From Thelocarpon superellum (Eukaryota), in assembly GCA_026025795.1 (NCBI GenBank), contig JAPEUG010000034.1, forward strand, positions 1 to 64,000: a stretch of 64,000 nucleotides of DNA, written 5' to 3'. Positions 5,141-48,850 of the stretch are shown in pieces (the stretch's first letter is position 1; every line of letters starts with the position of its first letter). The notes beneath the pieces are model-generated. The model was not told where the DNA came from. It saw only the letters and a list, made by a program, of their open reading frames with translations, and made no database searches. A program made the translations under genes and the position numbers.

Positions 5141-5809
5141 GATGCGGTGAGAAAGGAGGGTTCCGCCAAAAGGCAGTGGATTGATCAGGTAGTCTTGCGA
5201 CGTGGGTATCTGCAAGAACTTCTATCTGTCATCTGCGCCGATGCCAGGTAGGGGAGAGAAACAACGCGTGGCCGAGGACAGAAGTTCTAGGAGCCGTGTG
5301 GCATCGCACTGCTGCCAATAATAGGTGGTCTGCGGGCTCCACCCTGGGCACCGCCATGGACAACCAGGAGCTCGACGGAGGGAGCGACGGCGCGTGAGAT
5401 CGAGAAGGAAAAGACGCATCGATGAAATTGCGACTAGACATCGCGTGAGACACCTGAACATGTGAATGTCGGGCCCTTGAGCTGGAGCGCAACCTGGCTT
5501 GGGTTTTCCGCAGAGGCCAGCCTGGACTACTTGCGCGAATATCTCCGTTAGCTCGCATGCTTCCACGGCAGATGCAAAAGCATGTTCGACGTAGCCCAAG
5601 GATGAGGGACACAAGGCAGAATCCCCCGGGGTGCGGTGAAATGGGCGCGTATGGGAGGAGCTGCTGCATTGGTCGCCAGGCACCGTTACTCAAGGCGGTG
5701 GCGAGATCTGGCGGGGCCGTTAGACCTGTCAAGGCGTGGCGGCAGGTTCCGTGGGGGCAGGCAATTTGACAGAGGGTGGCCTATGCAATAATACTATTAA
5801 TACTATGTT

Positions 5810-5899
5810 TGTAGGAATCAGAGCTGAATTGCTAATCTACGCGTAGTCGGGATAGTAATAGGAGTGGACACGTGACCAAGTCACGTGCGCGCTCCTACA
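5810..5899 (+). mobile_element. 90-bp TG..CA element, copy 1 (solo-LTR/TRIM-like or MITE)
   Basis: Termini TGTAGGA...TCCTACA, flanked by direct repeat TGTT (5806-5809 and 5900-5903). 84/90 identical to the reverse complement of 13739-13828 by manual alignment. Confidence 0.85.
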
Positions 5900-6434
5900 T
5901 GTTCGTAGTATTGCAGCGACCTCGGCGTGATGGCGCAAGCACAATTGAGGTATAACCTGGAGAAATGTACTCTGGAGTCCGACCACGTTTTCAATAGGTT
6001 TGATGGCGGCCATCATGTATTGCACTTCGCCCTTGTATGCGGGTAGCTGACCAGCCATAGATCGCACGATTCTGCGTCGGTGGAAGATGGGGATCTCGGG
6101 CCGATTACGGACAGGCGGTGCCGCGTACCGAGTGCCACCACCAACGGCTTATTCCTACTACGGGTGGACGCAAGTACAAGTAGTCCTCGTTATACAGGTA
6201 AGAACTATCCCCACTTGTACTTCAGCTTGGCTCGTTGAGACTGGTTTCATTCAATTTCCTACTCGAAGAGTAGACACGCCGAGAGGAATAAAGGACCTCT
6301 AATACAGGACAAACAGCGGGGATCCTGTCTCAGGCAGGTATTCAGGGTAACATGCGTCCAAGCGGTGAGTGGCGGCCGTTCCTCCGCCTCCTCGCCTCCG
6401 TCTTTCCACAGCATCCCCGACACGTTGCATTCAT

Positions 6435-7442
6435 TCATCCACTGAAGATGCAGAGGAGGGCGAAGAGGAGGGCAGTCTTGCCCAACATCCCCGGCGTGCC
6501 CAACGACGCACCGTCTCCTGTGTCGGCAGCGCTTGTCGTCGGAGACAATATGCCGCCCGCAGAGCGGTTGGTGGTCACAGCGGCGGTGGCGGCGGTGCTG
6601 GTGGGTCCGGAGGCATCGCAGACGATCGAGGCCGACACCGTGGACGCAGGTAGGGACACCCCGGACGCGACTGTGGCAGCGACGATGTGCGCAGGAACGG
6701 TAGACAAGAGCGAGCTGCTGGCGGAGATGGCCGTTCCGTTACTCTTGAGGCCCCCCAGCGTGCTCGCGGCAATGGCACTGCCTACACCACTGCTAGTCCA
6801 GGGCGTCGGTAAGGTCAGCATCGCTGGGTTGGGTCGGTCCGCCTCGTCGGCCGCGTAGATGTTACCGGTCGTGCCGTTTGGCAGACGGTAGTCACCCGTG
6901 ATAAGGTTGCCGCTGGTCCCATCCGCCCGCGTGTAGATGCCCGTGGCAAGGTTGCCAAACGACGCGTCGGGGAGGAAGAAGTTGGTCGTGAATTTGTCCT
7001 GGTCATCGTGAGCCGCGGACCGGAACAGGGAGGGTGGTGAGCACTCACGTAGCAGAATGGAACCAGGTACTCGGAGAGTAGAAGGCATTGCGTTCCCTCC
7101 GCACCTGCCATGGCTGTCAATTGGCGCTCGGGTTCATTCGCTTCCCCACAGGGTTGACGTACAGCAAAACGGAATCGATACATCGCGGACGCCCAGCCCA
7201 CCGGAGACTTCATCGACACCTCGCTTCTCGGCCGACAGCTCAGGCAGAGAATGGAGGAGGTCCTTCAAGAGGTGTTGAGACTGTTGCACCACCGACTTGT
7301 ACGCGACAGGGTTCTCGCCCGGTGGGACGCAAGGCGTGTAGGTGCTCTGGCAGGCTTGCTTCGCGACCAGGAGGGAGGCTTGCGCGAAAGTCACGGCCCA
7401 CACTGCCACCAGCAGGACCAGAATGCGTCCGGCGAACGACAT
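6435..7442 (-). CDS. Putative GPI-anchored secreted Ser/Thr-rich cell-wall protein (3 exons)
   Basis: Signal peptide MSFAGRILVLLVAVWAVTFAQA. Two canonical introns join ...FCC-AEGTQCLLLSEYLVPFCY-DKFTTNFFLPD. Ser/Thr/Ala-rich stalk and hydrophobic C-terminus GMLGKTALLFALLCIFSG. Confidence 0.8.
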
Positions 7443-8305
7443 GTCGAGGCGCCACGAAGAGATACGGTCCGGGTACGAGGGGAGCGAAGGAAGGTGCAAA
7501 GGGTGGCAAACACGACGAGCAGCGAGCGACGGTAGTTGGAAGGCCCGGAGTCAGCGACAATGTGCCAGGGTTGGTGTTGTTAGGAAGGAGAGAGTGCGCG
7601 TCGAAGGACGGAAGTACAGACGAGGATTCTGTCACCCCTTGTGCAGAAGCAAGTAATGGGACAGCTTGTGTTCTGATAGCTTGTGCGATTTCCAGAAGCC
7701 GCAGTCACAGCGGTGAGCGACGCGTTCCCGGCGACGTGACGGGTACACGATCCACGACCAAGAGTGACCAGGCAGACTACAGCCGGCAGCCTGCAACTAT
7801 CCGTGGCTCGGATTCACCATGATCAAGACGCCTCTTGGCTCCAGTACACGACACCATCCACGACAAGAAGCAAATATGCTTCGGTCTTGGGCCTGCACAT
7901 GTCCTTGAAATTGGAAGTGTACTTGATCACGAAGACCACAGGAGACGGTGGCATGTCCCCCGAGTCTCAACGGGAAAGCACAGCAGTAATGGCAGGTTGC
8001 GCATTGGCAACGCACGCAATCCTCAACAGCTTTCACAGCCATTCATCTTGGCTCTTGGACCCTGTCTGCGTCCGACCGAGGTCATAAGCTGGACGATGCT
8101 CGTCGCGATCTGCCCCGCGGACGTGATTGGCGATGGCGCCTGCTGAAGACTTAGTCAGCCTCCTTGGAGCTCCCCCGCCAGCTTCACATGTCATCGCCGT
8201 CGTCTTCCCTCAAATGTTGCCCGCCTGCTATGATCTCAATCTGAACCTCAATTGCTCTCGAACTGCAATCGATTGATCGACTGTGAGCTGATCTCACCCA
8301 CGGTG

Positions 8306-8974
8306 ATGGAGAATCCAGGTACGGTGCCACTCTCCGCCCCAACTTCCACCTTCATTGACGCTTCGTTTGGGCGGCAGTGGAGGAGATCGGCCACGTCATA
8401 CGTTCGTTGACGCAAACACCACCTCACATCCAACGATACACCATCAACAGGTACTTCACGCCCAATGCGAGCTTCACGCATCCCTTCTGCCGCACGGGAT
8501 CCTTCGAGAACTCGCGATGGGTCATTGGTATGATCTACCGCTGGTACAAGATCATGTCGCCGCACATCGACCTCGATGTGACGAGTGTCGGTACGCACTA
8601 CGCCCACCTGCCCGCCTGCATGTGCGCCATTCACTGATTATGACTGCGTGGCTGGGATCGAAGCCTACGACGAGAAGATGCTGCGGCTCTACGTGGAGGT
8701 GCATCAGATCTTCTCCATCTGGCTCGTCCCGTTTTACGCGGCCAACGTCTCGCTGGTGACGGTGATTGATCTGGCTTACGACAAGCCGCGGCAGGTCTAT
8801 CTGATCAAGAGTCAAAATGACTTGTACCAGACTACGGAGTTTATCAAGTTCTTCTGGCCCGGTGGCTGGGTCGTGGCAATGCTCTGGCAATACGTTGCCA
8901 CTCTGCTCAGCATCCTGGGCGCTTTGATCTTGTGGCCGGTGACGTTGGTCGAGGATAAGTTTAACTTGGGATAG
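8306..8974 (+). CDS. Conserved fungal NTF2-like domain protein with C-terminal hydrophobic segment (3 exons)
   Basis: ATG GAG AAT CCA G|gtacgg; exon 2 contains YFTPNASFTHPFC and YRWYKIMSP; exon 3 contains QIFSIWLVPFY and IKSQNDLYQ. The pattern matches a widespread fungal hypothetical family recalled from memory. Confidence 0.75.
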
Positions 8975-9061
8975 AGGCGGCAATCAAGCTTGTACGAGTA
9001 TGTCGGTGTACGGGTCGTTTTACCACGTCCTCCTCGCCGCCTAGCGCCTTCACGGCGTGGC

Positions 9062-10663
9062 TCAGTTCGACTTGTATCCTAGTCCGTTGCGGATCCGATC
9101 CTCCTGCCGCACGACGCTCATGGGTAGGGCGGTGCCGATGCCGAAAAAAACGAAGAGGGCCCATTTCCATCGGAAAGGGTTGATGGCGACACAGAAGACG
9201 AACCAGTAGATCAGCTCGCTGTAGGTGAAAAAGTCAAAGGCACCGACGGGACTGCGGGCCTTGAGCCAGCGCGTCATGTCAATCCACGTCTTCATCAGAC
9301 GCTCCTGCGGGCGAGTCAACGGGTCCACCAGGAACATCAGCAGCAGGCGCGTGTAGATGCCGATGTGGTAATTGCCGACGGTGCCGATGGCGTTGACGTA
9401 GGTGCAGTTGTTGCAGCAGACGGACATGTGCTCGGGCGGGAAGGTCTGCAGATACCAGTTGGGCGGCGCATACGGCTCCTTGAAGACCTCATCGGGGAGG
9501 AAGCTCAGACTCGGGCGCGTGAAGCCCGTGGCCATGATGACCATGTCTCCTTTGACCACGATTTCTCGGCCCGGCCCGTCTTTGGGCACGCCCTGGGCGC
9601 GGTGGTTGAAGCGGATGCCGTCCGCTTCGAAGCCGTGGATGTCGCCGCGCAGCCACTCGGCGGTGCCGTCGCGGATCTGGTCGAGCACGTCACTGTTGAC
9701 CATGGGCGTATCGGTGAAGATGCCTTTGTTGCTGGGCGCAAGGTCTTCGAGGTCACGGTAGAAGAGGCGCTTCAGGAGGGTCTCGGGGATCCACGAAAAG
9801 AAGGTCTCCTGGCCCAGGACGTTCATCGCCAAGAGTCCATCGATGAGAGGATTGCGCGGGATGATCCATTTATCCGTCTACCCTTTGTCAGCCCGCTTCC
9901 ATCGCTCACGGGTCTGGGGTGGTCGAACCCTGGCGAGGATCGTCGTCTTCGCAGCAGCTTCATGCGCGGCAAATTCGAGGGCTTCAACGGCGCTCGCACC
10001 ACCACCGACGACGATAATCTTCTTCCCCTTGGCGCGCTTGCCATCCAGGTCCGAGGAATGATAGATTTCGCCTTTGAACTGCTCCTGACCCGAGATGTGG
10101 GGCATCTTGGCGTCGCCGCACGACCCGATGGCGGCCAAGATGCCGTCAAATCGGCCTTGCGACGGGTCATTGATCACCCAACGTTTCTTCTCGTCTTGGT
10201 ACACTTTGGTCACCCGGGTATTGAATCTGGTGCGCTCGGCAAGGCCGTAGCGCTTCCAGAGCTCGGTGATCTGGCTCACGATCTGTTTGCGGTCGGGATA
10301 GCCCTGGTGCCATTTCACCGACGGATGAAACCGATACATCAGACTGTGGATTTGAAGGCCGGACGTGTTGTTCACGCGCTGTCGAATGATTAGCCAGCAT
10401 GCAGACCTCGCATGCGATTCACCTACGCTCCAGATTCCGCCCAAGTTTTCTGGACCTCCGGCCTCGAAGATGACAACATCGAAGCCATGGCCCACACAAT
10501 GGGAAGCGGCGGCCACGCCGGTCAGGCCCGCTCCAATGACGGCAATCCTGGGTCGCGCAAGGGTGGCATGCGGGGGCGGCGGGGTCGGCGACAGCACTTT
10601 GTCGAGAATCCATTGGAAAAGATCATAGAGCCACAAGAACAGATTGAATCGGTGGGGCGCCAT
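9062..10663 (-). CDS. Flavin-containing monooxygenase (FMO/BVMO-like, FAD/NAD(P)-binding)
   Basis: Rossmann motif IAVIGAGLTG, GGIWS, FMO signature FKGEIYHSS and second dinucleotide motif VVGGGASAVE. Two introns. Confidence 0.9.
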
Positions 10664-11502
10664 GATGCGCGACGTCGGAGAAGGAAATCAGCGATGTTGT
10701 GCTGTTGAGATGCCCCGGAGTGGAGCAACGAGTTGGGGGCAGGCCGGGGAAACGGTGGACAAGCTGGGCAGGATGTGAGGGGCTGAGGGACTGATGACGA
10801 TGGACCCATGTGACGATGCTCTTCATCCTTGGAGAGCCCCAGAAAACCGCGCGCTGATGGTACTCGTTGGGGAGCTCTAGCGGAGGAACGACAGCCTGGA
10901 GTGCGACGGAAGTAGGCGCGGGTACGTCTCCATGCCGATCGACGTCATACCAAACCAACGCTCTCCAGCCACAAAGGCCCGTAGCAAACAAAGAAATCGA
11001 GTCGCGGATGCCTCCCGATTTGGGTGGTGAAGATGGGTTAAACCCCCATCATCGCCGGAAAAATGCATGCAATCTACGCCGGTGTCCGCCGTTGCCCATT
11101 TTCCACGGTTTCTCCAAGCCGGTCGCCGGACTGAGAGCGACAATGGCCCGCTTCACTCAGCTTGAGGGTCGAGGGCCAAGCGATCAAACCTGGCGACGGC
11201 GCTTCCCGAGCCGATCCGAGCCGCCTACGAGCACTCTGCCCGGGCGGTCTGGTCGAGTCTCGGTGTGGGTAGCAGCACGAGTGGCAGGGGGAAGCTTTGG
11301 GACCTATTCATCCTCTGCGCACTCATCTCCACCCGCGTCGCCGAAGCGCTCTACCGGGGCTGGGAGCCTGCGGTCCAAGTTCTCCAAGGAGCATTATGTG
11401 ACAGCATGTCTGGCCCTTGCCCAACAGAATCTGCAGCTTCGCCGACATCTTGGTGATCGGACGGGCGAAGGCGTGGTCGATCGCACGCCACCCCTCGCCA
11501 AC

Positions 11503-13300
11503 ATGTCTCTTGCTACGCCGACCCTGGACAACTTCTTGTCGTCTGTGTACAAACTACTCCAGTCAAAGGATGCCGTGCAATTGCGGCGCTATCTGCTCGT
11601 CGAGCCACCCTTGCCCGACATCTATTCCATGATGATCACGGAGCTCCGCCAGGCCTTTCCGGCCCCCCGGGCCGAGGCCTTGTCCCGGAAATGCGAGACC
11701 CTCCTCCCCGAGAACGTGGACCGACGCCCGGAGGATGAGGTGGGGTCGCCCTGGCCAGGCTTTCTCACCTTCATGAAGGAGTATCTGGAATATCTACGCG
11801 AGGTCAACGTGGAGAATCTCCTGGAGACGCACCAGCTGCTGAGCAGCTTGACCAAGTACGAGGCACAGATAACCCCCACCCCACGATAGACCGGCTGACG
11901 ACGGCGGCCTGTCTAGCCAATGCATCACGTCATTGTCTAATGCGTCCATGGGTCTGGTGGTGCTGCCCACGTGCCTGTCGCTCTCGGCCACGCTGGCACG
12001 GCTCGCCATGGGCCTGGACAAACGACCGGAGCTAACGGCCCACCTCATCCGGCGCAAGTCGATGGTCGACGCCGGAGACGATTCGGAGTCGAAACAGACC
12101 CTGGTGGAGGGCACGGCCGAGCTCCTGCAACGACCCTTCACCATCTGCTTGACGGATCGGACGGCCAGCGGCACAGGTATCGGTCGCGACGGTCGACCGG
12201 AGGGAAAGAAAGTGGGCATCTACCTGTTCGCCAACCTGGTGCTCAAGCTCTTGTTCCAGTGCCAGAAGACCCGCCTGGCCTCGCAGATCTTCACCAACAT
12301 CTCGCAGCACTCGCCGCCACTGGCCAGCTTCCCCGCCTCGCAACGGGTCACGTACCTGTACTACCTCGGCCGCTTTGCCTTTTCCAACAACCATTTCACG
12401 CGCGCCCAGACGACGTTGCAGGCGGCCCACGATCAATGTCAAGTGCAGGGCGTGAGGCAGCGCCGCCTGATCCTGATCTATCTCATCAGCAGCAACATCA
12501 TCTTGGGACGATTCCCGACGACCTCGCTCCTACAACAACCGGAAGCGCGCGGACTTGGGCCCAAGTTTTGGCCGCTCTGTCAAGCCATTGGGCGAGGCGA
12601 CTTGGCCGGCTTCATCCAGAGTTTGGAGGGAGAGCATCACCAGTGGTTCTTGGCACGCGGCATCTTGCTGCCGCTGCGTAACCGATGCGAGGTGCTCGTC
12701 TGGCGCACGCTGGCGCGGAAGACGTATGTGATGAACGGGGTGCCGGGGGGCGAGAGCCGAAGGGCGCCAACCTTTTCCCTTTACGATTTCTTACACCTCG
12801 CTCGCTTCCTCCAGCAACGCTCTCAGTCCTCGTCATCGCGTGCGGGCAATGCGCTGACGAACGGACGGGTGCACATCAATTCCATCTTCTTGGCCGCCCC
12901 GGCTCCTGAGTCGAGGACGAGTCACGCTCAACTCTCCCCCGATCCGGATCTAGTGGACGGCGACCAGGCCGAGAGCGAGAGCGAGAGCGAGAGCGATCTC
13001 TCTCTTCCCAGCATGTTGGATGTCGAATCGATCCTCGCATCACTCATCGCTCAAGGCCTCCTCCATGGCTTTTTGAGTCACAAGCTGCTCCGATTCGCCA
13101 TCCTGGGGTCCAAGAGCAAGGGCGCGCTCAGTGCCGGCTTTCCCGCTCCGTGGAGCGTGCTCAAGCCACGAGAGGACCAGGCGGTGCCCGGATGGGTCAA
13201 AGAGGAGTCCCGCGCGCCCATGATGGCGGGCCGGGCAGTCGGGCCGGGCATGGTGGTCAACCTGAGTGGGGCTCGACCGGCGGGTGCCTTTTCCGCTTGA
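11503..13300 (+). CDS. PCI-domain protein, CSN12/PCID2/Thp1-like
   Basis: KKVGIYLFANLVLKLLF, SQRVTYLYYLGR and winged-helix end VESILASLIAQGLLHGFLSH. One intron at ~11855-11917. Confidence 0.85.
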
Positions 13301-13738
13301 GCTCCATTCTCTCCTGTTGTGATTTGAGCGACATGATGAGGACGTTTGCCTCTCTACTTCTGTATCCAGCTCGTCCTATTCGAAAGCGCTCACCCTCGGT
13401 CGCGGCTGTTCCACGCAATGAAAGTAGGTATCAGCCATATGATTTAGAGGCTACCTGGTCCCGCACGTAGGTCATGTGGTTATCGACCCATCCATTTGTA
13501 AAAGCGTAAAGTCGCCGGAGAGTTGGTGCGTCCGACACTAAACTCCATCTGTCGCAAAATCATGTCTGAGCGGATGAAAGGACCTACTATTGGTAAAGAA
13601 GTCTTGTCACAGCGGATGAGCGGGTTCAAGTAACCGTGGCGGCGTGCGCGTTTGATATGGTGACGGTGTGGTGTTAGTTGTACGGCACGCTTGCTAGGCC
13701 AGGTGCGCCGTCTCTTGCCGCAACGCGACTCTTCTCCT

Positions 13739-13828
13739 TGTAGGAGCGCACACGTGATCTGGTCACGTGCCCAATCCTATCACTATCCCGACTACGCGTA
13801 GATTAGCAATTCAGCTCTGATTCCTACA
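13739..13828 (-). mobile_element. 90-bp TG..CA element, copy 2
   Basis: Termini TGTAGGA...TCCTACA, flanked by direct repeat TCCT (13735-13738 and 13829-13832). Opposite orientation to copy 1. Confidence 0.85.
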
Positions 13829-14172
13829 TCCTTAACATTCCAACAAGTTGATTGACGGACAGCCCAGACCATCCAAGGTTCGCCCAGGCGTTAGGCAGAT
13901 CCATTATCAGCCCAAAGGCTGTACATTCCTTGGCTCATCGGCTCTCGCGTTCTTTGTCGGCGCTTCATGTCGCGTTCTACGTGTCGACGGCACGTGACGG
14001 ATGATTTCGTTCAGCTATCACGTATGAGGTCAACAATGACGTCAGTCCGGAGGGACATCCTTCGTCAAGGAACTGAGACACTTCTGCTTGGCCATGCCCT
14101 CTGCCGCATTCATCCTACACTTTCCATCTTACCCCCGTAAAGGTGCCAGAATACCGAACCCGTCTTTTCATC

Positions 14173-36964: not shown

Positions 36965-38429
36965 ATGAATTACCAAAACGGCTACCATCCGCCCGGCTTC
37001 GCGACCCCACAGAATGTCAATGGCGCCCCCCCCGGCTTCGACGGTCCGCCGCGCCTCTCGGTCCAGCAACAGATGCTGCAGCAGCAGTTGCAGCAGCAGC
37101 AACAGCAGCAACAGGCACAAGCGCAACAGCAGCTCTTCCGACAACACCAATTCGCCCAGGCCCAGGCCCAGGCCCAGGCTCAGGCGCACGCCCATGCTCA
37201 GGCCCAGCAACAGTTTGGCCCGATGGCGGGCGCCAATCTCGGGGTCGGGCCGGGTCCGGCGGGTCCGGCGGGTCCTGGCGGGCCGATGATGCATGCCGCC
37301 ATGCAGCAGCAGGGCCCGCCGCAACAGCAGCAGCCGGCGCCGCTACCGCAAGCGCCGCCGCAGCAAGTGCCGATGGGAGGTGAGCAACGCGCCGGGCGCC
37401 GGGCGTGCGGACGAGACTGATGCAAGATGATTTGGCTAGGTCACCAGGGTCCGTATCCCACCGCGCCCTTCGCCCCGCCGGGTATGCCGAACTCGGCGAC
37501 GTCCATGCCCCCACAGGCGCCCATGCATCGCACGTCCTTGTCGCCGGCCAAGCAGGAGTCCCCGCAAACGCCCCAGCCTCGACCAGCGGCGCGGCAAATG
37601 TCCGGTCCACAGGTCCCCCCCGCCGCGCCCATCAGCCCGCCGGGCAAAGCGCCGGCAAACGCACGGGGCGCGGTGCAGGCGCCACTGTCGCCGTCGGCCA
37701 AGGCGCGCGAGAAGGAGCGCATCTCGTTGCTACTCCACATCAATGGCGAATTGCTCAAGGAGGTGGTCAAGCTCCAGGGCGAAGGCAAGGCAGGTGTCAC
37801 CGCGGCAACGCCAAATACCTCTGCCGGTCAGACCTCACCCACGCAGGAGAATGGTGAGATCAAGAAGGAGGCTCATGACGGCGAGGCGTCCAAGGAGAAG
37901 AAAGCCGTGCATCCCGAGTTTGTCGAGTGAGTGCTCCTGCACTCTGAGAACGCTCCCGCTCCCGCTCCTTGCTCACACTCATGCTTCTGACTACAGGTGC
38001 ATGCGTCGTCTCCAAGCTAACCTGGCCTACCTGGCTTCCATCGCCGACCGGGCCCACAAACCCGCCTCGCAGATTCTTGCCTCCCCGGCCATCATGACGG
38101 CGCCTCAAAAGGTGCCGGGCATGGTGGAACCCTATCGGAAGCTAACGGTCTTGTTCGCCACGAATCCGGCGGCGAAGACGAACTCAGCAACAAGCGCAAC
38201 ATCCGGTCCGCCCGCGATCCCTCCCACCAGCGGCGCCATCAACCAAGACCCGGCATGGTCCCAAACGCCGCCGTCGGAAAAGAATTACAAGCAGTGGCTG
38301 GAAGAGATGGGCAAGCCACCGAATGAGCACATGACACCACAGTCGGTGCCGCTCACGCAGATGCAAGCACAGCAGATGCAAGCCGCCCGACAGAATGCCG
38401 TCTACCACAGCGTGAACCGGACTGAATAG
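36965..38429 (+). CDS. Gln/Pro-rich nuclear protein with SS18/SSXT (SNH)-like helical domain (3 exons)
   Basis: PolyQ/QA N-terminus; ERISLLLHINGELLKEVVKLQ and spliced EFVE-CMRRLQANLAYLASIAD, resembling the SSXT motif LQxNLxYLAxxAD. Confidence 0.7.
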
Positions 38430-40485: not shown

Positions 40486-41658
40486 GTGCCGTACTTATGC
40501 TACTCGATTCACATCCCCGCCCCCACTTCTTCCCACGCATCCTTGTACTCTCCTGAACGTGAGATCAAAATGGGTCCAATATGGGTGTGTAGTCAGCTTA
40601 TGTATATTTGGCCGATCATCGCGGACAATGTAAAAGAAGGGCAGAATAAGAGGCGCTCCTAGCAGGCTCTCCGACCTCACTTTTCACATGACCTGAAGGC
40701 TCTGCGGGTCGACAGGCATCGACTGACTGCTGAAAGGCTGCCGATCGAGCGGGTTGCTCGTGTACTGCCGCGAGTCCTTGAAGTCCGGCGGTGTACCCAG
40801 GGTGGGGCGCTCGCTGGACAATCCGAGCGTCTTTCTATTCAGCGAGTGTCTTCCCCGCCGCGAGACCAACAGTTCGGTGGCCGAAGTCAAGCAGCTAGGT
40901 AACGGTTTCCCTTCGAAATTCTATCAAAACATTTCTCTACCTAGCTATGTTCATCCTCCAGTTTGGTGGAAGCACGGCGGAGGAGAGACGGTGTGAGGCT
41001 CTCGGCGGCAGTCGGATAGAGACAAGAGTCATCACGTGAGATGCACGTGATTGATTAGCTAACTTTCCCAAGCTTCACCTATGACGAGGCGGGGTGGAGG
41101 AGGTAAAGACGGGAGCTCAAGGTGCTGAGGGATACGTAAAGGCACCACCAATTCGCGTATGATATCCACCTAAACGTTTCACCAAAAACTATAGCTAGAG
41201 CTGGTGCAACTCTACTCGGGATTTAGTGGAGGATCCCGGAATAGCAATGCATCACGGCATATCATGCGTGGCCCAGACAATGACTAATATGCTCCCCGTG
41301 TCTTCCACGACGCTTGGACTCGGCCACGTCTCAGCAGCAAAGCAAGAGATACTTGTGTAGTTCCTATCGTTCTTTTCCCCAGCGGTCTGCCGACTATGTG
41401 TTCCGGGCTCCCCCTTAGCTCGTCCGACACCGAGATAACACATCATCGGCAGATGTGCTCCCCTAAGCTACTCTCTTCCCTCAACCATCCTCAGGACATC
41501 AGGCGTCGACCTCTTGCCCTGCCACTAGCCTCATGCCCGAGACATGCCTGATCCTCCCTGTGGGTCACAGGCCATATACACGATGAGAGGGGATTAGGCA
41601 ATTGTCTGTCCGCAGCATCCGCCCATCAGGTCAGCCAGACATCACACCGACCGCCAAT

Positions 41659-45012: not shown

Positions 45013-45192
45013 GCTCGACGTATGATGGGGCTGTGACGTGAGACTGCGGTTTCTCCTTGGCGTGGGGCCCGGACCACGGTGCGCCAGGGAGAACACGTCC
45101 CTCTCTGGATAAGTATTGTTGACTAGAGAGGTCGGAGGAGAGATCAGAGACACGATGTGACCACCGAGTGATCAGTCACATGACCTGACGCC

Positions 45193-45642
45193 TAGGGTGG
45201 CCGCGAGGTTCGGTTTATCCGGTGTCAATCGACGGTTTCCTGCAGGCTTCCCTACGGATAGGGTTTCGGTCCAGAGATTGAACCCTGAAAGCGGTTTTTT
45301 GTGTCCCATATTGCTACCAAGCAAACCAGGTTGGAGCAGCAGGTATCGCTGTAGGGAACCTCCATAAGTGACTCCAATTTTTGGGAGGCGGGACGCAGCC
45401 GCAATGATGACTAATATAAAAATCCACCCTGAAAATGACTGCTTATGTGATTCACTAGCCAGATATAGACAAAGGCATTTATGGACCAATCAGCCAGGTA
45501 GGGTCGGTATGGGTACGGGTACGGGTACGGGTATGGGTAGGCTACAAGTTGTAGCCTACAACTTACCTGCCTTATCCAACCCGGGTGTTGGCAGGTAGGT
45601 ATGGCCTCACGACCCGACCCAAGTGAACCTACGGCCACCCTA
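45193..45642. mobile_element. Degenerate ~450-bp non-autonomous TIR element (MITE-like)
   Basis: Left end TAGGGTGGCCGCGAGGTTC; right end GAACCTACGGCCACCCTA (reverse complement TAGGGTGGCCGTAGGTTC). Internal GGGTA/CGGGT/ACCCG repeats; no 8-bp TSD recognisable. Confidence 0.55.
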
Positions 45643-46023: not shown

Positions 46024-47211
46024 CTACAGGTCAAAAGTCCAACCCCCGTTGGCAATCAGCTTCTCGCGGGCCTCGGCGTCACGTCGGACCTCGTCCTGCG
46101 TCAGACGATCCTGCCCCGTCCAGTTGGCGCTGCTGGTGCGGTTCCGGAAGCGATGGTGGCGCTCCTTGTTGCGGAAGATGTCCTCCATGTGCAGGGGCGC
46201 GATCGGCCCAAAGACCCCTTCAGGGTCCACCAGCTGCTGGCCCTCGAGTTGCGACCGCAAGGCGGGTGACTGCGCCCACTCTGGCCGGACAAAGTCCCTC
46301 TTCTCGTCCGCGGAGTCGTCGGCTTCCGAGTCCGTCTCGATCTCGGGCAGTTCAATCTCCTCGCCGTCGCGAAAACGCGGAGACGATCGAGTAGCCTCTT
46401 TGGCGGGTCCGCTGGTGCTCCCCGCGCTCGGGATGATCGGTCGAGTGGCGCCGGCGCCGGCGTAGGCGTGAGCGAAGAGCGCCGGCTTGGGCGGCGCGTC
46501 TTGTGGCTGGGTCGAGCGTGAGCGCCACCGCGTCCACGACTTCTCGGAATGACTCACCTTCCGCATGCTCGACTGTCGCACTGGCGGCGGCATGGGAGGC
46601 ATCTGTCGAACGGCTTCTCTGACTTGCTGCGCTTGAGGCTGCGGCGGATGCTGCGGCGGATGCTGCGGCAGATGCCGCTGGGGTTGCTCCTCATCCTCCG
46701 TCTTACGTCGTTTGCATTGATTCGCGACATACTTACCGTGATGGTCTGGTGCATGTGCGTGTGCCGGTCCCACCGTGGCGGCGGCCCCGTCGCCTGCCTC
46801 AATCTCCATCAATCGTTTCGGCGGTCGCGCCGGATTGATCGGCGGCTGAATGACCGGTCGAATCATAGTTTCTTGCGCGGGCGCAGGCGCGTGCCCGTGC
46901 ACATGTGACGGTGGCGGTCGGACCTGTCTCGTCAGCTTCTTCCCCACATCTCCGGTATCGTGGGCCCGTCACATACATTGCTTGCGGCATTCATCTTGGC
47001 CATCGACCGCGCGGGACCCAACTCTCCACGTTGGTGGGCGGCCGTGGGCGCTGGCGCCTGCGCCCCCTTCTTCTCTACTTCCCCCGTCTGTCGACCACCG
47101 TCAGTCAATGCCACCCCAGATCTACCCATAGACACTCACGTGACTGTTGCCACCCTTGCTAGGAGCTGTCGGTGCCGCAGGCAGTGGTCGTCTCTGTTGC
47201 TGCGGCGGCTG

Positions 47212-47293
<82 letters not shown>

Positions 47294-48850
47294 TCCATCT
47301 TCTTGGCCAACTCCATGCGTCTCTTCTCAATCGCTCTTCGCTGCGCCGCCTTCTTGGGATCTTCTGCCGCTGCGGCTTGCTCACGCTCTCGTTCTCGCCG
47401 TTGACGATCCATTTGTTCCCGCGCATGTTGGTCAAGCCGGCGCTCTTGTTCTTGTTGCGCGGCACGACGTCGTTCAATCTCTTGTTCCACCTCTCGTTTC
47501 TGAATCAATTTCTTCTTGGCGTCGCGCTCCTCCTGCGAGGGGTCAGCCGAGTTTCGCACCAAGACCGTTGCTGACATGTCGCCTTACCTGCTCTTTCCTT
47601 CGCGCGGCAGCCAGCAATGCTTTGGGCTTGGACGAAACGCCACTCTTCATCGTTGCCGTCGTGCTGATGCTCGAGTTGCTTGCTTTCTTCTGCAGCGTCG
47701 GCTGCTTTGGCACCGCTGCCGCTGCCGCCGGCACTGAGGCTGGTGGCGCAAGCGAGTTTTGGAGATTGCTGGCAAGCGCCGTATTGGGCGGTGGATAGGG
47801 TGCCATCTAGCCGCGTGTTAGTCTCGAGGATAGGGAGCGGGATGATTGCCATTCAACCTTGCGATGATCAAGCTCGCGCTGTGACGCAGTCAACTGCGAG
47901 GCGGTGCCGACGCGAATCGCGATGGGGGCAGGTTTGGGCTGGACCTTGGCCGAAGCCTCCTTGCCACGCTGCACTTGCCGCTGCGCTTCCTTGGCCTTGG
48001 CCGCCTGCGTGGCAGCATGAGCCTGCGCGGCGGCTTTCTGCCGTTCCTTCTCGCGAGCCTTCTCCAGCTGCTGCTCCATCTCCTTCCTCTTTTCCTCGAC
48101 CTCCTGGTCTCGGGTTTCATGGTTGGCGGCCACGGCACTGCGGGCCATCAGATCACGGGCGGACTTCAGGATGGATGAGAGTTTGGCCTTGGGGCTATCC
48201 GGGGCTGGTCCGGACCGACCAAATTGCGACAACATGGTGATCCGATCGTGCAGCCTGGTCAACGGCTCACGGGCCGGGAGTGAGGCCAGGTTGAGGCTGC
48301 TCTTCCGCACGACCGGTCGGATGGGACTGGAGCCCTCCGACGATGACGCTCGTGACGGAGGGTCGATAGACATGGCGTCCTCCTTGTTCACCCCCGCCGC
48401 ATCCGTCGTCGTGGCCTCTGCCATGGTCACCTCCGTGGTCACCGCCGTAGCGACCGCCGTAGCCACTGCCGTAGCCACCGCCGCGGCCGGAGGGGCCGCA
48501 TCAATGTCTGGCTCGTCCGTATGAATACGAACCTCACTCCCGCCGCCCATGACCCCTCCGTCATCTGGAGGCGCCTGCACGTCCACGGGGAGGGCCTTGA
48601 GTGGCGAACGTCGTGGAGTCTTGCCGCGTAACCTGGCTGGTGTCTTCATCAACTCGACGACATTCACGATGGCGTTTTCGTCCAAGATCTCGGCCATGTG
48701 CTCGTTCAGCCAGTCCATCTCGTTGCGGACGGCCCACGAGAACTCGTCCACCTCCTGCTGCACGAACTGGGTCGTGGCCAGCCGCTCGTCGGAGATCCAT
48801 GGGCTCGAGCCCACGGCGAGCGGGGCGATGTTCGATCGTACGGGCGCCAT
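46024..48850 (-). CDS. Inner centromere protein INCENP (Sli15/Pic1-like), about 6 exons
   Basis: N-terminal FSWAVRNEMDWLNEHMAEI, ELMKTPARLRGKTP, a charged helical region and the C-terminal Aurora-binding IN-box LPEIETDSE...PEWAQSP...FRNRTSSANW. Confidence 0.9.
47218..47292 (-). repeat. Coding CAG/CAA repeat: 25 Gln including 21 uninterrupted CAG codons
   Basis: (CTG)n run on the plus strand within INCENP exon 3. Confidence 0.95.

Follow-up and report, generated by a model that had tools for sequence, protein, structure and literature searches.

A 90-bp high-copy mobile element with 4-bp target-site duplications in a Pezizomycotina fungus

How did the same 90-bp sequence come to stand twice, in opposite orientations and 7,839 nt apart, between the genes of one fungal contig? 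The question is raised by the first 64,000 nt of contig JAPEUG010000034.1 of Thelocarpon superellum (assembly GCA_026025795.1, forward strand), the whole of which is referred to here as the window. A first-pass annotation, made from the sequence alone, had proposed that a tiny mobile element was inserted there twice. Alignment of the two copies bore out the coordinates that it gave (Table 1), the length of exactly 90 bp, the identity of 84 positions in 90, and the complete agreement of the first 47 bp. The copies align without a gap, and all six differences lie at element positions 48–79. We conclude that the 90-mer is a real, high-copy, tiny, non-coding and non-autonomous mobile element of a Pezizomycotina fungus and that it is inserted by an enzyme making 4-bp staggered cuts.

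The ends of the element are well defined. Both copies begin with TGTAGGA and finish with TCCTACA, and beyond these 7-bp inverted termini the two element ends have no sequence in common, with no subterminal similarity. Likeness between the copies ceases at the same boundaries; a repeat search stretched the pair to 101 nt, and only about five of the 11 added bases match. Directly outside, each copy is flanked by its own 4-bp target-site duplication (TSD), TGTT at copy 1 and TCCT at copy 2 (AGGA on the element strand). In each case the 4-mers to the left and to the right of the element are the same. The inverted termini and the separate duplications are both confirmed as claimed. By our own arithmetic, two exact 4/4 matches at fixed boundaries would arise by chance with a probability of about (1/256)^2. 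The 5′ 23-mer of the element occurs exactly twice in the window, and none of 100 shuffled sequences contained any match to it. Searches of the 64 kb with blastn-short and with nhmmer --max revealed neither a complete nor a partial third copy. With a separate TSD at each copy and different outer flanks (TGTT versus TCCT), the proposal that these are independent insertions is supported. The 4-bp TSD is seen at both of the two window copies; further copies are known only through consensus flanks.

Those further copies were found in sequencing contigs. Contigs of run X1, which contains 90% of the sampled words of positions 5500–6300 and is the probable source run of the assembly, were aligned to that interval together with contigs of three metagenome runs (X2, X3 and X5). 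From X1, 408 contigs fell on the interval, nearly all of them on the 90-mer. They were 99% or more alike in 125 cases, 95–99% in 148, 90–95% in 98 and below 90% in 37, which places 273 of the 408 at 95% or more. Summed word depth, 131–145 over the unique flanks, reached 55,861, 163,353, 59,059 and 28,751 in four successive bins over the element (5797–5823, 5824–5850, 5851–5877 and 5878–5904). The depth at single positions was 52,156 at 5857 and 37,375 at 5868; at the latter, G (the state of copy 2) was present in 74 distinct contigs and is the majority letter of the family. A sub-family carries one additional T after 5848. Because overlapping de Bruijn contigs can inflate such sums, we read the family size as an order of magnitude only, 10^2 to 10^3 copies per genome. 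Depth and contigs together support the high copy number that the first-pass annotation had considered probable. As an observation in its own right, records 2 and 4–7 of X1 are short contigs that run across other copies of the element at depths of 34–95, under the single-copy level; heterozygosity or a mixture of genotypes may confine some insertions to a part of the sample, or depth may be a noisy measure for contigs of this length.

The same contigs confirm the element boundaries independently. Loose ends, where contigs of other loci part from the window sequence, were found in 12 and 17 contigs before 5809 and 5810, and in 20 and 4 contigs behind 5899 and 5900. These counts are lower bounds, at least 29 on the left and at least 24 on the right among the matches listed. 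Agreement among the flanks at the loose ends was only 0.44–0.55, which indicates many different flanks.

Table 1. Positions, in the window, of the two element copies and of the features in and around them
Feature	Position	Strand	Remarks
Element copy 1	5810..5899	+	90 bp, TGTAGGA...TCCTACA; X1 contigs of other loci start or stop matching exactly here
Element copy 2	13739..13828	-	90 bp, inverted relative to copy 1, 84/90 identical
Left TSD of copy 1	5806..5809	.	TGTT
Right TSD of copy 1	5900..5903	.	TGTT
TSD of copy 2	13735..13738	.	TCCT on + (AGGA on the element strand)
Second TSD repeat of copy 2	13829..13832	.	TCCT on +
Left arm of 7-bp inverted repeat	5799..5805	.	AATACTA, pre-insertion target of copy 1
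Right arm of 7-bp inverted repeat	5906..5912	.	TAGTATT, pre-insertion target of copy 1
Imperfect palindrome (hairpin), 3′ half of copy 1	5859..5897	+	Element positions 50–88; fold and nhmmer self-match
Same imperfect palindrome in copy 2	13741..13779	-	Fold and nhmmer self-match
Perfect 10-bp palindrome CTACGCGTAG, invariant 5′ half	5837..5846	+	Contains ACGCGT; blastn self-matches on both strands; in copy 2 at 13792–13801

Is the site of insertion chosen? The flank consensus lines drawn from X1 are mostly noise, but not entirely so. Compared with simulated unrelated flanks, agreement was higher in three of the four lines (z 3.2, 5.9 and 6.3); the fourth gave a z of 0.7 with n = 4. Both left lines read AACTTAC at −10 to −4, and both right lines have the reverse complement at +4 to +10, as GTAAGTT (7/7) and GTAAATT (6/7). 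Once the 4-bp duplication is allowed for, the consensus target is AACTTA-CNNG-TAAGTT, which is palindromic. A contig of the moss metagenome (X3) matches the element over its first 44 nt, a single mismatch apart, beside a quite different flank, and this flank ends in AACATA followed by CTGC, which fits the consensus target. When the empty site of copy 1 is reconstructed, the TSD is surrounded by the 7-bp inverted repeat AATACTA/TAGTATT; among 20,000 positions drawn at random from the window, 0.7% had arms of at least 7 bp. In our own comparison, the site of copy 2 retains TTA ahead of its TSD and AAG behind it. A palindromic target as a rule is therefore supported in part, for copy 1 and for the consensus and not for copy 2. 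A target that is symmetric and AT-rich would be expected of a multimeric integrase or transposase, and it would explain the presence of copies in the intergenic DNA of a genome with 60% GC.

Both copies are indeed intergenic, as had been claimed. They lie in stretches of about 50% GC without three-base periodicity (roughly 5670–6330 and 13290–14130), between genes, and the coding regions beside them have strong third-position GC. Copy 1 stands upstream of a gene on the minus strand, the clearly coding part of which ends at 5215. Copy 2 lies about 440 bp beyond the stop of the open reading frame (ORF) at 11933–13300 and about 315 bp ahead of the ORF that opens a DUF3292 gene.

The internal sequence is organized unevenly. 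In run X1 the 5′ 47 bp have by far the greatest depth of the element, whereas the 3′ half is variable. That half, element positions 50–88, is an imperfect palindrome, with the layout TAGGAG...CACGTGAC-loop-GTCACGTG...CTCCTA, in which two CACGTG motifs lie in inverted RTCACGTG-like contexts; all six copy-to-copy differences fall in it or just before it. As single-stranded DNA the palindrome of copy 1 folds at −17.8 kcal/mol (z −3.7, none of 200 shuffles as good) and that of copy 2 at −14.8 kcal/mol (z −2.4). A reverse-strand self-match was returned by nhmmer for copy 1, over model positions 50–88 (E 1.3e-4), and for copy 2 (E 9e-4). Rfam, searched with a tRNA-, 5S- or short interspersed nuclear element-like origin in mind, gave no match over the element (best E 2.8, 15.9 bits against a gathering score of 155). 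Neither TATAAA nor AATAAA was seen in the 90 bp, which are too short to code for a protein. CACGTG is the E-box (Cbf1/Pho4-type) and ACGCGT the MluI box, both transcription-factor motifs. We speculate that these boxes could serve as transcription-factor sites where the element lands upstream of genes.

What enzyme would have placed the element in these sites? The footprint of a retroviral-type integrase, as suggested in the first-pass annotation, is supported; the terminus TGTAG fits the TGTNR of Ginger transposons and of Gypsy long terminal repeats (LTRs) in the excerpted text of PMC2836005 (papers are cited from excerpts here and below). The TG...CA ends, the TGTNR terminus and the 4-bp stagger together point to the integrase branch of the DDE enzymes. 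A DDE enzyme of the retroviral-integrase kind, acting in trans, would catalyze insertion by joining the CA-3′ ends of the element to a target in which the cut is staggered by 4 bp. It would prefer AT-rich, roughly palindromic sites, and these would be rare outside intergenic DNA in this genome of 60% GC.

We favor, without being confident of it, the reading that the 90-mer is a miniature inverted-repeat transposable element (MITE)-like DNA element that is mobilized in trans. In the version we prefer, it would move as DNA by means of an integrase-like (Ginger-like) transposase encoded elsewhere, and at 90 bp it would be too short for repeat-induced point mutation, which would help it to multiply. 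This reading is favored by the size, the copy number, the strong target word and the gene-proximal position in a repeat-poor region. The element is short (MITEs measure less than about 800 bp) and non-coding, its TSD has a fixed length of 4 bp in both window copies, and its copies are numerous and homogeneous. Several observations weigh against the reading. The inverted termini measure only 7 bp, which is more typical of LTRs than of elements with terminal inverted repeats (TIRs), and the lopsided conservation, with an invariant 5′ 47 bp and a variable 3′ half, would not be predicted if a transposase bound a pair of similar ends. At copy 2 the target lacks a palindrome, its best arms being 2 bp long. 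No autonomous partner, excision footprint or empty site was seen, and the TSD rule rests on two copies. Neighboring de Bruijn contigs overlap, so that the summed depths may over-count, perhaps two-fold or so. In the boldest reading, which we consider unlikely, the element would be the smallest fungal substrate of a retroviral-type integrase on record, either as a 90-bp LTR or as a plain-DNA MITE using a Ginger-type or retrotransposon integrase; the enzyme would need little beyond the 7-bp TG...CA ends and would aim at a 16-bp palindromic target, and a module of two CACGTG boxes and one ACGCGT box would be carried into hundreds of promoters.

The short termini and the uneven conservation fit another account, which is possible although we are inclined to doubt it: the 90-mers would be solo LTRs, or the LTRs of a derivative resembling terminal-repeat retrotransposons in miniature (TRIMs), of a Gypsy-type LTR retrotransposon. 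The integrase of the retroelement would insert it with a 4-bp TSD, and recombination between its LTRs would then delete the internal part. On the opposite strand, U3 would correspond to the variable half with the hairpin and the CACGTG boxes, and R-U5 to the invariant 47 bp, so that a variable U3 and a conserved R-U5 would account for the lopsided conservation. The TG...CA ends, the 7-bp inverted repeat, the TGTNR terminus and the 4-bp TSD make up the classic signature of an LTR, and, like solo LTRs, the two window copies are complete. However, 90 bp is below the shortest LTR documented in the material compared here, which has 120 bp (PMC10886601), and hundreds of solo LTRs would be a large number where a region is as gene-dense and repeat-poor as the window. 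The two copies are inverted and 7.8 kb apart, with ordinary genes between them; there is no direct pair of 90-mers with a primer-binding site, a polypurine tract or gag-pol in the 64-kb window, which holds the two inverted copies only. None of the 47 window ORF translations scanned matches a reverse transcriptase, RNase H or integrase. No TGG-type primer-binding site adjoins either copy or appears in the flank consensus, although identical internal junctions could collapse into few contigs and so be hidden.

Two further accounts take their cue from the flanks and from the arrangement of the copies. The flank consensus contains the fungal 5′ splice-site hexamer GTAAGT, with GTAAGTT/GTAAATT standing 3 nt past the 3′ end of the element and the complement AACTTAC 3 nt before its 5′ end. 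A length of 90 + 4 bp is typical of a fungal intron. Introners with TIRs and TSDs have been described in many eukaryotes, as excerpts of that literature have it, and the element might thus be introner-like, or might target or create splice sites. We consider this highly improbable. Both window copies lie between genes, in DNA without codon periodicity, and the GTAAGT motifs stand outside the element, facing away from it on either side, so that the element is not inside such an intron; a preference for palindromic targets is the simpler account of the symmetry of the motif. The inverted orientation of the copies at a distance of 7,839 nt would also suit the ends of a single 8-kb composite transposon, or a segmental rearrangement, to which we give next to no credence. 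The outer flanks differ while each copy has the same 4-mer on its own two sides, a TSD pattern that rules out the composite transposon. The interval holds ordinary genes (e.g., a flavin monooxygenase), and hundreds of other junctions occur at the 90-bp boundaries. Among these accounts we retain two, the MITE-like element moved by an integrase-type enzyme and the 90-bp solo LTR, with a slight preference for the former.

The surroundings of the copies are those of ordinary genes. The window ORFs have predicted domains of TOP2, RabGAP-TBC, INCENP, a Sas10/Utp3 protein and an Nma111-like PDZ protease, and others encode a histidinol-phosphate aminotransferase, the fungal family DUF3292 and the flavin monooxygenase that lies between copies 1 and 2. 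Such genes are those of a fungal nuclear chromosome. The best named relatives of the aminotransferase have only 59–63% identity to it and are spread over several Pezizomycotina classes; with unnamed ENA proteins the identity rises to 71%. This makes the host an ascomycete of a thinly sampled lineage. A comparison of TOP2 with the ESM Atlas gave taxa that are uninformative for its placement. Among the 47 ORF translations scanned, no Pfam match was obtained to a reverse transcriptase, RNase H, integrase or transposase. Other repeats in the window were of a different nature. Its repeat listing is dominated by CAG/CTG (polyglutamine-type) trinucleotide runs inside ORFs (37064–37366 and 46621–47307). 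A 33-nt direct repeat occurs in two copies that are 73% identical (40684–40716 and 45176–45208), both starting with TCACATGACCTGA; this is probably due to chance.

The metagenome runs gave a limited view of the locus elsewhere. X2, X3 and X5 all contain parts of the unique left flank of copy 1, with one or two mismatches per matched piece of 69–151 nt, which indicates that the same or a very close fungus is present in those samples at low depth. One plant-metagenome contig (X5, 151 nt, depth 2) joins the left flank, 5730–5798 with two mismatches, to an inverted element (5898 to 5817, five mismatches), and the junction lies 12 bp left of the copy 1 junction in the window. Perhaps a related strain received an insertion of its own at this hotspot; alternatively, the record may be an inversion or a chimera. 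In X1, the single-copy left-flank contig ends at 5798, 11 nt before the element, and the right-flank contig begins at 5870, about 30 nt inside it. The stop at 5798/5799 suggests a sequence variant at that point in the source sample; it coincides with the X5 junction, and the right-hand side gives no support to a second allele.

Directly left of the copy 1 TSD, a 9-nt tandem duplication, AATACTATT/AATACTATG, occupies window positions 5790–5807. It holds a second CTAT, 5 nt beyond the 4-mer that an insertion of the X5 type would have as its TSD. Replication slippage could have produced the duplication, or an element with an 8-bp TSD could have left it behind on excision. An origin as an excision footprint of the 90-bp element was considered and set aside, since an 8+1-nt duplication fits slippage or the footprint of another element equally well.

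Searches with shorter probes were also made. A metagenome scan with the 24-nt conserved core gave no matches, and neither did prokaryote genome contigs or viral contigs when searched for the element. The 5′ 20-mer was found at 19 metagenome loci, which were rejected as members of the family; they belong to one unrelated repeat of 32–35% GC that diverges straight past those 20 letters. This low-GC stretch, of at least 155 nt, is nearly identical at 19 places in long contigs and is present twice in each of three contigs. It belongs to an unrelated low-GC organism, as an element or gene in several copies, and the 20-mer is common to the two by chance.

Has the element been described? Keyword searches of the literature found no published description, and a fungal TG..CA element with a 4-bp TSD was not among the results. 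Three sub-strings of the element, searched in the text of the literature, gave only unrelated primer-type matches. We regard the element as a new family of an ordinary, known kind, notable for its small size and apparent target specificity; it may match a repeat catalogued in Dfam or Repbase. Nothing points to a new mechanism, and this is a new family, not a new principle. A genome-wide catalogue would show how small an element can be and still be handled by integrase-type enzymes, and it would give a clean fungal case of strong palindromic target choice. It would also supply hundreds of dispersed, polymorphic markers for an under-sampled ascomycete lineage, and it would allow a test of whether a tiny element with E-box and MluI-box motifs rewires promoters.

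How, finally, does the element compare with known systems? TGTNR termini are common to Ginger1, Ginger2 and Gypsy LTRs (PMC2836005). According to the same source, Ginger1 has 4-bp TSDs at CCGG/CCGT and TIRs of 40–270 bp, and Ginger2 has 4-bp TSDs (5 bp in TDD-4/5) at the AT-rich RTATAY and TIRs of 50–180 bp. Ginger2-derived MITEs of insects measure 531–651 bp, with 16-bp TIRs, TATA-like TSDs and 40 to >120 copies (PMC3845634). The 90-mer resembles Ginger2/TDD and their MITEs (e.g., Ginger2_NA of Bombyx and Rhodnius) in its TGTNR...CA termini, its 4-bp TSD and its AT-rich palindromic target, which is RTATAY/TATA in those elements, and the non-autonomous Ginger2 derivatives likewise reach tens to hundreds of copies (PMC2836005, PMC3845634). 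It differs from them in a TIR of only 7 bp, where Ginger2 has 50–180 bp and its MITEs 16 bp, and in a length of 90 bp as opposed to 531–651 bp. Its TSDs (TGTT/AGGA) and its target (AACTTA-CNNG-TAAGTT) are neither CCGG/CCGT nor RTATAY, and the 47 window ORFs scanned include no partner with an integrase-like transposase. The 90-mer was rejected as a member of Ginger on TIR length and target word, although the TGTNR terminus and the 4-bp TSD agree. In the excerpt of the 2010 paper, fungal Ginger2 is only a vestige in Malassezia (PMC2836005); in a later survey, rve-based 'Ginger' calls are widespread in fungi (PMC5751038). GingerRoot/IS3EU has 6-bp TSDs (PMC6839031).

LTR elements have TSDs of 3–6 bp (PMC10045372), a range that includes the 4 bp found here, and the 90-mer shares with Gypsy solo LTRs, TRIM and SMART the TG...CA ends, a short inverted repeat, the TGTNR terminus and complete, solitary, dispersed copies. 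In the excerpt of PMC10886601, the TRIM Helenus-1_SMo has a 120-bp LTR and SMART, at 292 bp, is the shortest whole non-autonomous LTR element. The 90-mer is shorter than that shortest documented LTR, and, unlike these elements, it shows no paired copies, primer-binding site or polypurine tract, or internal region in the window. Its 4-bp TSD also separates it from the fungal Helenus TRIMs, whose TSDs have 5 bp (PMC10886601). IS481EU (Banshee), which in the excerpt of PMC10045372 is known only from parabasalids, has TGT..ACA ends, TIRs mostly below 50 bp and TSDs of 4 or 15–16 bp. The 90-mer is like it in its TGT...ACA termini and short TIRs, in the 4-bp TSDs that several of those families produce and in the existence of non-autonomous derivatives; it is unlike it in that many families there have 15–16-bp TSDs and that no transposase was seen here among the 47 window ORFs (PMC10045372).

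Small fungal MITEs are alike in being tiny, non-coding, high-copy sequences near genes, with a TSD and inverted termini. They are short enough to escape repeat-induced point mutation. To our knowledge, those described in fungi are mostly related to Tc1/mariner (TA), hAT (8 bp), PIF (3 bp) or Mutator, next to which the 90-mer stands with its 4-bp TSD.

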